From NCBI GenBank assembly GCA_000182565.2, contig KQ257451.1: a stretch of DNA of 64,000 nucleotides; one strand, 5' to 3'. The notes beneath the pieces are model-generated. The model had not been told where the DNA came from and made no database searches. It saw only the letters and a program-made list of their open reading frames with translations. Each line of letters begins with the position of its first letter. Position 1 is the first letter of the stretch. The DNA is from Spizellomyces punctatus DAOM BR117 (Eukaryota). This document shows, piece after piece, positions 8,701-13,800 of this stretch. Position numbers and translations under genes: made by a program.

Positions 8701-9694
8701 TATTCACATCCAATGCAAACTAACAGATTCCTGACCTGAATTATGTACAAACAAATATGAACCCAAGCAGTCACAGTGATTAAAGTATTGAAAATGGAGA
8801 GACCCAATCTCACGGCTTTCTGCGTGATCGGGGAGAAATTGAAGGCGACGTTTTTGCTATGGACGAAGCTATATCACTCTGAGAAGGTCCGTTATCACGG
8901 GACAGCACAGACTTACCTTGGCGTAAAGACCATCATAATGGATAAATGCATTCGCCAGAATCGTAAGGGGTAGAGGAACGCAAGAACCTGACTTGCATCA
9001 AGGTAATCTGACTTCGCGTCGTCCTTTTGAACGAACGCCCATATAACCGGCAACGTCGCCAAAAAGGACACCAGAGAGAACCATGAGACCAAGTCTGCCA
9101 TTGGATCCAAAGATAAATAAACCCTCGGTAGCCATTGGGTCAGTATCGCACAAGCAAGCACCAAGTCTGCAACAAAGAGACCATCGGGCGGGGGTGCTGG
9201 TCGCTGTGGAGGAAGATTTGGGTTACCTCGCTTTGGAGCAATGATATAGGTTGTCATGTACACAAAGAGCAGAACGAATGCAACATTCAACGCGGCATCG
9301 AGAACATGCCACCTATCGGATACAAAATTTGAGAAGCTGCCAGAAGACGTTAGAGGTTTTGCAGCTTTACTAACCATCGGCCCAGGGTTGTATAGTCCAG
9401 ATAGTATGCCCAGCGCTCCCGCGCCGAAGGCTGTCTGATTTTCTCCCCTACATTTCCTGTAATTCCCGTATCCAAGTAATGACAGTCATTGTCTTCATCT
9501 TCAGAGCTACTGTCACCCCTCTTGCGCGAGACGGGCCCGTCGTCGAAATTACGTCCAGGTCGTGCTCTTGCTGTGGGTTTTTTTAGCCATTTCTTCCCGG
9601 ATGGTGACCAGACCGGATGAACTCCTTTGGTCTTGGGAGCAGGAGGCCGAGAAGACACACCTGCCGATGCGAGCAGTGGTTGACGTTCTGCCAT
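5718..9694 (-). CDS. Slo/BK-family (KCNMA1/KCNT-like) channel with tandem RCK domains and a non-canonical pore motif (multi-exon)
   Basis: Transmembrane helices, S6-linker PTNLADLLALIRNKSKYDRSY, RCK1 HVLIAGN, MLAQSCLAPGFSTLLYLL, EIYAVTLSSAFAGMSF, RCK2 DHVLIC, C-terminal LGLYR...YVVVNP...DDLVYV. Confidence 0.88.
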
Positions 9695-9824
9695 GTCTTG
9701 CTGTAGGCGTCGTCAACGTGAAGAAGGGCAAGCAGGTATCTTTTTCAAGCCGATGGGTTAGGTAAACCAAAGATCGCTTATAGCCACGTGATTTGCGGTC
9801 AGGACGCCGTGCGTTTCAAGGATC

Positions 9825-10178
9825 ATGTCCCTTATGCATGCCGTGAGGGAAGAAGGGTTACGACTTTTCGACTTTCTGGCGCGGATAAGGTGGCAAGACT
9901 TGCATGATAGTCTGGATGGCCGCGGCGACGATGTGCCAGACCCTGATCCGAAGGGCGATGAGGAGGGAGGTGAGGATGACGAGAGCGACGACGACCGGAG
10001 TGGGTCGTCCAGGCGCCGGAAGCGCCGGCACAAGAGGTCTCGGCTTCAGCGTGCTGGAGCGAAGGATCCGGTCGTCGATAGCACCGCCAAGGTTCAAGGT
10101 TGGCTTGCTCATGTAATCCAACCGGAAGGCCCAGGCGCTGCTCCTGGAGCGGAGGATCTTCCTCCCTTCGCGTCGTGA
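9825..10178 (+). CDS. Small orphan protein (117 aa) with an acidic tract followed by an Arg/Lys-rich motif (RRRKRRHKRSR)
   Basis: ATG-initiated intronless ORF ~130 bp from the divergent channel ATG, matching the head-to-head layout of other genes here. CACGTG lies at 9785-9790. No family recognised. Confidence 0.5.
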   Translation: MSLMHAVREEGLRLFDFLARIRWQDLHDSLDGRGDDVPDPDPKGDEEGGEDDESDDDRSGSSRRRKRRHKRSRLQRAGAKDPVVDSTAKVQGWLAHVIQPEGPGAAPGAEDLPPFAS

Positions 10179-10266
10179 TCGTTGGGGCCACCCGACTTTC
10201 CGTCCTCCAGGTAAGTATCGAGGTAAGTATGGTCTCTCCTTCCCGAAGAGGACGTGGTAGAAACTA

Positions 10267-10472
10267 CACAGCGCAGTGGCCTAGCGGCTGGGCGAATCTG
10301 TGGGGCCACGCTGAGGGAAGCCGATAAGTCGCGCGATACGGTAGCAAGTTCACAGCGCAGTGGCCTAGCGGCTGGGCGAATCTGTGGCGCCGTACACCCG
10401 GTGTTATTCCCGAAGGACGTGGTAGAAACTACACAGCGCGGTGGCCTAGCGGCTGGGCGAATCTGTGGCGCC
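10267..10472 (+). repeat. Three near-identical 41-nt direct repeats (10267-10307, 10351-10391, 10432-10472) with 43- and 40-nt linkers
   Basis: Consensus CACAGCGC(A/G)GTGGCCTAGCGGCTGGGCGAATCTGTGG(G/C)GCC. Copies 1 and 3 also share the upstream TTCCCGAAG(AG)GACGTGGTAGAAACTA. Confidence 0.95.
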
Positions 10473-10542
10473 ATGCATTGTACTTTTGGAAGCAGGCGAC
10501 TCTCGGGAGCACTTTGGCCGTTGAGAGTTTTCTTTCAACGGT

Positions 10543-10619
10543 GGAGGTGTAATGCAGCTGTACCCGTCCCAAGCCGGGGGCTCGTTTCTCCATGAAATGG
10601 GAATGCAGAGGGCATCTTC
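10543..10619 (+). ncRNA. Twister self-cleaving ribozyme, P1 type, with a P5 stem
   Basis: P1 GGAGGUG/CAUCUUC; UAA (10550-10552); P2 UGC/GCA; P4 CCCG/CGGG closing loop UCCCAAGC; GAGGG at 10608-10612. Pseudoknot partners CCC/GGG and GC/GC are present. P5 CUCGUUUC/GAAAUGGG. Matches the twister consensus as I recall it. Confidence 0.88.
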
Positions 10620-10865
10620 AAGTGTGGTCTAACATGTTGGGTCTAAATGTGTATTATCGGAACCGAAACGCGAGACTTCCAAGCTTTTGCGTTTTCAATA
10701 CATTTGGACTTGTTGCAGACGGTGCTTGTTATTCAAATGCCTTTTGTTTTAACGCCCTCTTCCAGACGCCTCGCAACGACCAAGAAATAGCAATTAAATG
10801 TGCTGAGGAATTGTCACAAATTTATATTGTCGAGTAGTTACATCACGTCCATCTAAATAGGGGCA

Positions 10866-13800
10866 CTATGCAAACTCCTCGGTCGTTGGAACGGGAGTTA
10901 TTTTCCATATCCTTTTGGCATAATCTTGAATGGATCTGCGCGATGTGTAACGTCAAAGAGACATCCAACGCGGTTCAAACGGTCAATTGCTAAATACCTA
11001 TCAGAACTGAATTTCCCCATGCTTGCAGCAGCTGTGATGCACTTCTTGGCCCATGCAGACTTGTTCTTAAAAGCTGCATCGACGCGTTCCATCGCCTCCA
11101 AGTCTGTGTACGACCAATTAATACCCAATGATACTTGAAGTTACGCTTTAAAATCAATTCAATCTTACATGGTGTAAAGTCCTTGCTTAACAAATAGTAA
11201 TCGGAGCGAAGGGTGCCTAAGATCACATTCGAATCGATAAGAGCTTCCTCCGCGGCCTTGTTACTAAAGTGCGAGCCTTACCGAGAAGAGGCTCAAATAT
11301 GACCGAGTCCCCGTAGCGACCCGATTGAATGCTTTTGATGACACCTTGAAGCTTGGCATCCATTGCGACGTTGTGATACATTTGGTGATGCCGGATGTCC
11401 TCCACCTCAGCTGTCAGAGCGCCAAAGAAAAAAATGTTGTCCTTGCCAACTTCTTCGCCGATCTCAATGTTGGCTGAACAGGAGGAAAAGTCAGTATGCA
11501 ATGGAGCCCCATAGCAATTCAATCATCAAATGTGCACCTCCATCAACCGTTCCCAGGATCAATCCTCCGTTTAGTACAAATTTCCTGCATGTTGGGAATT
11601 AGTCCGACTCGAAAACACAAGATGAAAGGAGTCCAGATTGCCCCGCGTTCCTTACATGTTAGATGTGCCCGAAGCTTCAGTTCCAGCTGTTGAGATATGC
11701 TGGGAAAGATCACTTGCCGGAATTAAGATCTCGGCAACAGAGACATTGTAGTTGGGGATAAAAATAAGCTTGAGGTATTCAGATGTCTGTGGGTCCGCAT
11801 TCACAACATTCGCCACGCTGGTGATCAGCTTGATAATGAGCTTTGCAGTGTAGTAACCTGCGCTAACGAGTGAATGGGCAACTCTTTTGACAAATTACCA
11901 TATCAGCGGAAATAACAATACTGACCTGGCGCAGCCTTGCCCGCAAAGATCACTTTTTGGAAGGACATGTGAGCGATGCTTCCATTGCCAAGCTACAGGC
12001 CATATCACATACCGACTCGCGGAACGACTTTTTCCAATTCCGCCTTGCTCATACTCTTCAGTTTCTCATACCGATGAATGACGCCAAAGATATTCATGTG
12101 CTGACGCTTATATTCGTGCAAACGCTTGCATTGCACGTCGAAAAGCGCATCAGGTGAGAGTGTCACACCGGTAACATCCTTGACATACTCTGCCAATCTG
12201 ATTTTGTTCTTGTACTTGATGTCCATGAACCTGTTCTGAAAGCCCACGTCATCGGCAAATGCTTTGATTTTGTCCAATTGAGACAAATCCTTTAACCAAG
12301 CAGTTCCCCCCAACTTCTCGGAAATGAGGGTACTCAACCCAGGGTTTGCTTGGTGCAGCCACCTTCTCGGGGTAACACCATTGGTCACGTTGACAAATTT
12401 CTCTTTACCAAAGAACTCAACGAAGTCAGCGAATATTGTTGTCTTCACAAGTTCAGAATGAAGCTCAGCAACACCGTTAACGTGATGGCTTCCGATCGCT
12501 GCAAGGTGCGCCATCCTCACATACTGAGGGTGTCCTTCTTCAATGACAGACATGCGCCGCAGCCTGTCTCTGTCACCCGGGAACAACTTTTCCACACGTT
12601 GTAGGAAGTAGAGGTTGAGCTCAAAAATAATCATCATGTGACGAGGAAGTAAGTCTGAGATCAAGGGAACTGCCCATTTCTCCAGAGCTTCGGGCAAAAC
12701 TGTGTGGTTGGTGTACGAATATGTGTGCGTCACTATATCCCATGCCTCGTCCCACGTAAGTCCCTCCTCGTCAATCAAAATTCGCTGCAGCTCGACAATG
12801 GAGAGGGTAGGATGCGTATCGTTCAATTGAATGGACACCTGCTGGGGGAATTCTGACCAAGGTCGGGATGTCTTCTTGAAACGCCGAATGATATCTTGCA
12901 ACGTTGCGGAAACAAAGAAGTACTGCTGCTTGAGACGCAGGACTTTGCCGACCATATGGTTATCGTTCGGATACAAGACACTTGTAATGTTTTCGGCTGC
13001 CTTCTGCTCCTCCACACTCTTATCATAGTTGCCCTCGTTGAAGCTGACGTAGGGACGCGTTCAGTGTTTGCAACAAAGCTACAAGACTTACATGGCAGAA
13101 ACATGAATGGGCTAACTGAGGATGGCTCACCTTGCAAAGTCAAACTCCTTCTTCGGCTTACTTGACCAGAGGCGGATGTTGATGCAATTCTTGGTTTGGA
13201 ACCCAGGAATAGGATAATCATTTGCGACCGCGACAACCTTTTCGCCTCCCTCCCATCGATACCGTGTTTGTCCACTAACGTCTACATATTTTTCAACGTA
13301 CCCGCGGAAGCGAACATCATACGAGACATCCAGACGTTGAATTTCCCACGGGTTTCCAAACGTGAGCCAGTAATCAGGGTACTCTGTTTGGTACCCATCC
13401 ACCAGCTGCATTCATGCAATATGATCACTGTTAGTATCCAAGGAGTAAAAAGCATCTGAAATTCTCTCCACCTTCTGTTGAAAGATTCCGTATTCATATC
13501 TGATCCCGTATCCCCTGGAAATCGTCAATGAGCAAGAGACACACATTCGCTTTTAAATAAAACCGCAGTGCACACCATGCAGGATAATCCAGAGTGGCCA
13601 AAGAGTCCATAAAACAAGCGGCCAATCGCCCCAAGCCCCCATTGCCCAATGCTGCATCAACCTCTTCATCGACAAGATCCTCAATTGTGAATCCAATACC
13701 ACCAATTGCGCGTTTATAGTGGTCCTTCAAATTCAAGTTCAACAAGGCATTATCAAGTGTTCGTCCGATCAGAAACTCGAGCGACATGTAATAGACGCGC

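Follow-up and report, generated by a model that had tools for sequence, protein, structure and literature searches.

A tandem array of conserved, apparently structured RNA modules beside a candidate twister ribozyme in Spizellomyces punctatus

The window analyzed here, 64,000 nucleotides of contig KQ257451.1 of Spizellomyces punctatus DAOM BR117 (assembly GCA_000182565.2), carries a tandem array of three modules, of types A, B and A, that are joined by two linkers (positions 10240-10476, plus strand, as delimited by repeat searches). We see about an even chance that these are structured cis-acting RNA modules in a 3' untranslated region (UTR), which a neighboring twister ribozyme candidate severs from the poly(A) tail. 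Part of this reading, and held at the same strength, is that the modules are structured non-coding RNA, with three copies here and four in a related species, in a small lineage-specific gene. The reading builds on the repeat itself, plus strand transcription, nucleotide conservation, a covarying closing helix, a match to the twister model and a step in RNA depth.

The repeat array and its closing helix

The array lies on the plus strand, 3' of a small open reading frame (ORF) and between two convergent gene ends. The ORF, taken from the ORF list and denoted P0001 (9825-10178, plus strand), comprises 117 codons followed by TGA (10176-10178) and is homologous to residues 280-390 of P0002, a protein model of the related species. 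A search of the protein collection with this ORF returned, among 18 candidates, the window's own product and nothing else. The flanking genes encode a BK-type potassium channel (minus strand, start near 9690) and glycogen phosphorylase (minus strand, 3' part within 10781-11300), the introns of the latter being bounded by CT..AC as read on the plus strand.

Tandem Repeats Finder reports the array at 10240-10472 with a period of 81, 2.8 copies and 74% matches. A repeat search resolves it into three 63-nt copies that start at 10249, 10333 and 10414 (steps of 84 and 81 nt), with copies 2 and 3 being 81% and 95% identical to copy 1 over the 63 nt, respectively. These searches confirm the three near-identical units that an earlier note on this DNA had placed, 84 and 81 nt apart, at 10267, 10351 and 10432. 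The two variable positions that it had counted over 41 nt are likewise found (A/A/G at 10275/10359/10440 and G/C/C at 10304/10388/10469), the repeat search agrees that linker 2 partly repeats the leader of copy 1, and GGGCCAC is indeed present at 10185-10191 and 10303-10309. A 37-nt core matches three times in the 64-kb window when up to three mismatches are allowed, and not once in 100 shuffles. Degenerate additional copies were not detected in the flanks, whose local alignments to the periods score within the random range. A covariance model built from the copies (R1) retrieved only the three of them in the window, the next match scoring 11.8 bits with an E-value of 0.7.

Each unit had been drawn in the earlier note as two stems. 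Such a fold can be drawn, with -12.9 kcal/mol compared with -14.9 kcal/mol for the minimum free energy (MFE) structure, but 9% of 1000 shuffles fold equally well, and the folding z-scores of the 53-nt contexts range from -0.5 to +1.1. All 11 pairs of the two stems are invariant among the copies, and the copy comparison thus neither supports nor refutes them. An outer helix that closes each copy behaves differently: it is paired in all three copies, with three of its five pairs changed on both sides. In controls where the helix partner was slid by 1-3 columns, 25-44% of the cells pair and no pair is altered on both sides. RNAalifold recovers the closing helix unprompted, and the helix is present in both the MFE and the centroid structure of every 58-nt module on the plus strand, with weak z-scores of -1.6, -1.1 and -0.7. 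On the minus strand copy 3 loses the helix as its G-U pair becomes C·A.

Since the outer helix closes each copy, the functional unit would be a 58-nt module, and the predicted helix defines three apparently structured modules. Module 1, type A (10253-10310, plus strand), is closed by CGUGG/CCACG (10253-10257/10306-10310) and contains the 37-nt invariant core (10267-10303). Module 2, type B (10337-10394, plus strand), is closed by UACGG/CCGUA (10337-10341/10390-10394), and module 3, again of type A (10418-10475, plus strand), by CGUGG/CCAUG with one G-U pair (10418-10422/10471-10475). The variable part of linker 1 on the plus strand comprises 26 nt (10311-10336), and linker 2 comprises 23 nt (10395-10417, plus strand; repeat search and P0002 alignment). 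The A and B subtypes alternate, and the super-unit of A plus B is 165 nt long. A fourth module in the P0002 relative combines a B-type leader with an A-like tail, which, as far as can be judged from the protein sequence, would break one or two of the closing pairs.

The copy comparison also bears on a rival explanation, namely that a higher-order unit of ~165 nt (A plus B) was duplicated neutrally within the 3' UTR, that evolutionary closeness or gene conversion mimics conservation, and that the complementary differences between leaders and tails reflect chance or an effect of duplication junctions. We regard this as unlikely, yet as an alternative to be taken seriously. It accords with the unremarkable folding energies and with the small basis of the covariation, which comes from three sequences that are paralogs of one array and whose score is reached by 34 of 500 shuffles. 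It does not readily explain why three neighboring pairs have had both partners replaced and still pair, when the slid controls show no such case.

The array has no match to Rfam 15 at the gathering score, so far as any Rfam family is concerned the modules fit none, and the sole match in an E-value scan over the array is a chance-level snoRNA on the minus strand (E 4.7). A further suggestion, that the units are transcribed by RNA polymerase III and derive from tRNAs, starts from the A-box-like motif in each unit, which presumably resembles the A box and D-arm of long-arm tRNAs, and from a period of 81-84 nt that approximates the length of a tRNA. We consider it scarcely credible. ARAGORN finds no tRNA gene in the window, Rfam yields no tRNA or tRNA-like match even at E-values up to 10, no B box is seen by eye at the usual distance, and contigs from the RNA libraries run across leader, unit, linker and unit. 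The A-box idea of the earlier note thus has no support, with neither a cloverleaf nor a combination of A and B boxes of the type 2 kind being found.

Conservation in a related species

The frame-0 translation of 10227-10592 was used as a phmmer query against 1.84 billion representative sequences (E ≤ 1e-3). Three matches were obtained, one of which, P0002 (E 2.8e-14), is real; the other two, P0003 and P0004, were judged to be unrelated repeat proteins. P0002 is the model of a hypothetical protein of 506 amino acids from Spizellomyces sp. 'palustris', a chytrid. Its detection depended on a gene model that extends across the array, and this amounts to an ascertainment bias.

Residues 280-390 of P0002 align with the window ORF in one frame over 9825-10170, with 71 of the 95 aligned codons identical and 28 gap steps. 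Farther 3', a frameshift-aware alignment places frameshifts at 10170, 10213, 10326 and 10412, and the P0002 model carries four units that use window frames 0 and 2 in alternation, at spacings inferred to be 85 and 80 nt. The blocks of leader plus unit are identical to P0002 in 18/21, 21/21 and 19/19 codons for modules 1, 2 and 3, respectively (58/61 in total), compared with 2/6 codons in the central part of linker 1. Units that stay identical under two reading frames, with a conservation that exceeds that of the coding part, argue that the module constraint is, by this sequence comparison, one that acts on nucleotides rather than on a peptide.

The same comparison weighs against neutral duplication, as the modules retain 58 of 61 codons between the species while the ORF retains 71 of 95 with many indels, and as gene conversion acts inside one genome and does not preserve identity from one species to another. 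Other observations agree with that rival. The copy number and the order of linkers vary, and a contig from an RNA library (described below) shows a different order of units, a 75-nt spacing and a 3-nt insertion. Moreover, unit homologs outside one genus were not found in the protein, metagenome, viral and prokaryote collections searched, including the metagenome, viral and prokaryote-genome contigs in which the 23-nt unit core has no match. With its head-to-tail copies of alternating A and B type, and with copy number, linkers, order and spacings that differ between RNA data sets, the array resembles a tandem repeat or minisatellite. Unlike a minisatellite, it has units that stay the same in both species next to diverging flanks, and the covarying helix and strand-specific transcription suggest a function.

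Translation of the units into a peptide repeat was named in the earlier note as a case that would overturn its proposal. This idea, in which the array might for example encode the precursor of processed secreted peptides, now appears very improbable. What speaks for it is that all spacings in the window's species are multiples of three (84 and 81, and 75 plus a 3-nt insertion in the RNA contig), that 10227-10595 is free of stops in plus strand frame 0 and frame 2 encodes a Trp-rich unit, and that the gene model of the relative passes through the array. However, stops at 10176, 10212 and 10224 part the ORF from the array, frame 0 offers no ATG before the array, and frame 2 contains TAA at 10325. 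P0002 reads the identical units in alternating frames. A search for homologs of the array frame-0 ORF yielded none among 165 candidates, and one with the minus strand ORF none among 79; the only protein homolog is the P0002 model. No signal peptide or pattern of dibasic sites was seen on inspection, nor was a Pfam match obtained, and the linker substitutions, as read from the RNA contigs, show no codon-position bias. There is thus no single frame with a start codon and processing sites.

The proposal of the earlier note that the units are binding modules or processing signals fares better in part, being favored in outline by transcription, frame-independent conservation and the covarying helix, whereas the invariant stems originally drawn are neither supported nor refuted.

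Residues 1-300 of P0002 resemble fungal PD-(D/E)XK nuclease-like families (ESM Atlas; feature score 0.95, TM 0.68-0.70). P0002 has no Pfam family at E-values up to 1, so that the nuclease reading serves only as a lead, and a literature search on the PF20516/DUF7924 families returned nothing relevant. The first 300 residues have no counterpart in the window (best E 0.13), and the window gene may belong to a multi-copy family as one of its short or truncated members. This resemblance is the starting point of another rival, in which the array is an element at the DNA level, with units that serve as binding sites for proteins or as subterminal repeats in a selfish, multi-copy family of PD-(D/E)XK-like nucleases, of which the window copy would lack the 5' part of the nuclease gene and retain the tail. 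We think this improbable. The short inverted repeats that flank each module can be read as a DNA symmetry. The G-U pair of copy 3, in contrast, functions only in plus strand RNA, a repeat search within 9500-11500 found neither an inverted partner array nor terminal repeats, and, as noted, P0002 matches no Pfam family. The RNA data presented below bear on both sides of the question.

Two further observations concern the spacing and extent of the conserved region. The spacings seen in the window's species (84, 81, 75 and 84 plus 3) are all multiples of three, though the array looks non-coding, while those inferred for the P0002 relative (85 and 80) are not, yet give the same sum of 165. In addition, 21 nt on the plus strand between the stop codon and the array (10189-10209) match P0002 in 7/7 codons, in a frame other than that of the ORF, which indicates that the conserved non-coding stretch begins upstream of the array.

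Transcripts and the candidate ribozyme

RNA reads and contigs of four runs were mapped on 9500-11300. In the raw-read run, which consists of 60-nt first mates, 1350 of the 1442 mapped reads fit in part only; our guess is that these reads begin with short non-genomic sequence. The phosphorylase gene, on the minus strand, is covered solely by reads whose first mate maps to the minus strand, which establishes that the first mate has RNA sense. The array and the twister candidate are covered solely by reads with the first mate on the plus strand, and are transcribed on that strand. Strand-specific RNA over the array, between two convergent 3' ends, counts against the DNA-level rival.

Plus strand depth in this run is 0.3-5.6 over 9744-9987, zero over 9988-10109 and 0.3-0.6 over 10110-10231, and rises to 6.5-8.3 over the array (10232-10475). 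It then falls to 0.49 (10476-10536), increases abruptly to 126 (10537-10597) and 106 (10598-10658), and drops to 1.64 (10659-10719). An abundant fragment of plus strand RNA, which is presumably the 3' product of cleavage and proximal to the poly(A), is thereby placed at 10551-10660, its ends being known from depth to ~60 nt. The library is 3'-biased; the phosphorylase transcript, however, at 125-185 nt from its end still keeps a depth of 94-114 relative to a maximum of ~225, and the bias therefore does not account for a rise that exceeds 200-fold over 60 nt. Such a step would fit a 5' end generated by twister cleavage as well as the start of a transcript, and the 60-nt bins are too coarse to choose between them.

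Most of these reads carry letters that differ from the window. At 10590, 223 of 254 reads have variant letters, and similar shares (~85-88%) are seen at 10591, 10593, 10615 and 10619. All five variants are compatible with the twister fold, three lying in the P5 loop and the others changing a G-U to a G-C pair and a G-C to a G-U pair in P1. The depth step is still ~30-fold when only the reads with window letters (31/254) are counted. No such variant letters are found in the adjacent phosphorylase region of the same run. The variant reads suggest a second, more highly expressed copy elsewhere, an allele or a collapsed assembly; further copies are also what the DNA-level rival would lead one to expect. 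In linker 1, three of four reads have non-window letters, and other copies are therefore the simplest source of the excess depth seen over the array, which is not counted as evidence for a stable module RNA.

Two further libraries hold spliced phosphorylase contigs, and hence contain RNA, together with array contigs that cover 10181-10296, 10267-10380 and 10242-10394. The depth of library contigs is 4.8-5.4 over the array and 3.5-12.1 over the phosphorylase gene. The 10242-10394 contig has a different order of units, which are unchanged except at the known A/G site; one of its spacings is 75 nt, and its linker 1 differs by eight substitutions and a 3-nt insertion, in agreement with the variable nature of that linker. 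Within the mapped runs, the array and the twister candidate are not joined by any single read or contig.

An Rfam E-value scan gave one match in the whole window, to the type-P1 twister family RF03160, at 10546-10616 on the plus strand, ~70 nt 3' of the array. The score of 35.8 bits corresponds to E-values of 4.6e-4 over 64 kb and 3.9e-6 over 551 nt; it is below the gathering score of 67.2, at which a scan of the window is empty. The alignment spans the full model (positions 1-68 of 68), with the UAA at the cut, the GUCCCAAGCC loop and GAGGG in place. The MFE structure of the 77-nt segment 10543-10619 contains P1 (7 bp), P2 (4 bp), P4 (4 bp) and P5 (8 bp) as in the consensus. Twister ribozymes have two pseudoknots that link the P4 loop to both internal loops. 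On visual inspection, candidate pairings here are those of GC at 10557-58 with GC at 10573-74 and of CCC at 10568-70 with GGG at 10610-12. Helices P1, P2 and P4 and the conserved loops are all found, and the neighboring element (10543-10619, plus strand; Rfam match, fold and RNA depth) is probably a type-P1 twister, though under the Rfam cut-off, with the optional P5 hairpin (10581-10601) and without P3. Cleavage is predicted between 10550 and 10551, that is, between the stop codon at 10176-78 and the end of plus strand coverage near 10660.

The resemblance to RF03160 concerns this neighbor and not the repeat units. It extends over the full-length alignment and the helices and loops named above, and is qualified by the low score, the absence of P3, the insertion of the 21-nt P5 hairpin and a competing hairpin upstream. 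The latter, an 18-bp hairpin with a UUUU loop (10509-10550, plus strand), is predicted in both the MFE and the centroid structure of 10476-10625, and its outer seven pairs would occupy the 5' strand of P1 and the U of the cleavage site. It is predicted to prevail over P1 and could hold back or gate the cut. A direct pairing between unit and twister, in the sense of an "anti-twister", was considered and rejected, as the duplex energy of -39.1 kcal/mol is matched by 52% of 500 shuffled units. A search with a twister-core pattern found 23 metagenome loci (bioreactor and groundwater samples), mostly with minimal 6-nt gaps and none with the unit; to judge from sample names and gaps, they look bacterial and not akin to the array locus. 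Six of the 23 were scanned with Rfam, giving one Twister-P5 match, elsewhere in locus L005. A high-throughput study reports that a number of twister candidates from fungi showed no activity in vitro (PMC11662667). The literature searched yielded no twisters in chytrids and no nuclear ribozymes of Spizellomyces.

Proposed mechanism and relation to known systems

In the favored reading, of structured modules that a twister severs from the poly(A) tail, we infer that the array and the twister lie on one transcript and that the depth step marks self-cleavage. The twister would be placed between the stop codon and the poly(A) site, on the strand of the array and ~70 nt downstream of it. Self-cleavage would split the transcript into an untailed body, comprising the ORF and the modules, and a short tail piece that carries the poly(A). 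The modules would most likely act in cis on the body, as a multivalent structure that binds proteins or blocks nucleases, and such binding or blocking would set the stability or fate of the untailed mRNA body.

A stronger proposal, which we hold to be doubtful, is that array and twister form one device for the control of mRNA fate independently of poly(A). Modules with a bound protein or small ligand would protect and mark the cut mRNA body. Alternatively, they might gate the cut by favoring either the anti-P1 hairpin (10509-10550) or the active twister fold. If true, the one-device proposal would amount to a natural eukaryotic ribozyme switch in a multi-copy gene family of early-diverging fungi.

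By analogy, mammalian Clec2 genes carry a hammerhead in the 3' UTR between the stop codon and the polyadenylation site, cleavage by which removes the tail from the mRNA body, as described in a review (PMC6765202). The candidate ribozyme discussed above would occupy a corresponding place between stop and poly(A) site. It differs in being a twister that is continuous and not split, in another kingdom, with a conserved tandem module array just upstream of the cut. We know of no counterpart of the module array in Clec2. In the 3' regions of RNAs, repeated structured modules can stop exonucleases or serve as protein-binding sites, examples being the duplicated exonuclease-resistant elements of flavivirus 3' UTRs and the structure at the 3' end of MALAT1. 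The modules share with these the repetition of compact conserved folds near the 3' end of an RNA and a depth greater than that of the flanks, but they have no sequence or Rfam similarity to them, and the excess depth may stem from other copies. The likeness to CRISPR-like arrays is one of layout only, in that repeats of ~40-60 nt alternate with unique linkers of ~25-45 nt. In contrast to such arrays, the present one is eukaryotic and nuclear, has 3-4 units and linkers that are partly conserved across species, and its unit is absent from the prokaryotic, viral and metagenome collections.

The role of most genome-encoded self-cleaving ribozymes, eukaryotic twisters included, remains elusive according to the same review (PMC6765202). 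At the present locus a twister candidate sits at a defined position, after a stop codon and ahead of a poly(A) site, with RNA-seq signs that are consistent with cutting in vivo, and its layout could help test what twister ribozymes do in eukaryotes. The module would be a new RNA family, conserved, apparently structured and located beside the twister candidate. In the main texts searched on twisters and other ribozymes in fungi, chytrids and Spizellomyces, no such array is described. At least one Spizellomyces species can be transformed in the laboratory, and reporter tests of the ribozyme and the modules may therefore be possible.

Several minor features of the locus were also recorded. A 12-nt tandem duplication at 10210-10232 on the plus strand creates two perfect AG|GTAAGT look-alikes of 5' splice sites (10210/11 and 10222/23). 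A reading as splice sites was rejected, since the RNA reads contain no plus strand splice joints, and the relative, by inference from P0002, lacks the duplication. A contig of one run stops exactly at 10222. On the minus strand, reads confirm the 3' introns of the phosphorylase gene at 10936-10997, 11104-11168 and 11216-11280 (62, 65 and 65 nt), and the phosphorylase transcript ends only ~120 nt from the end of the plus strand transcript.
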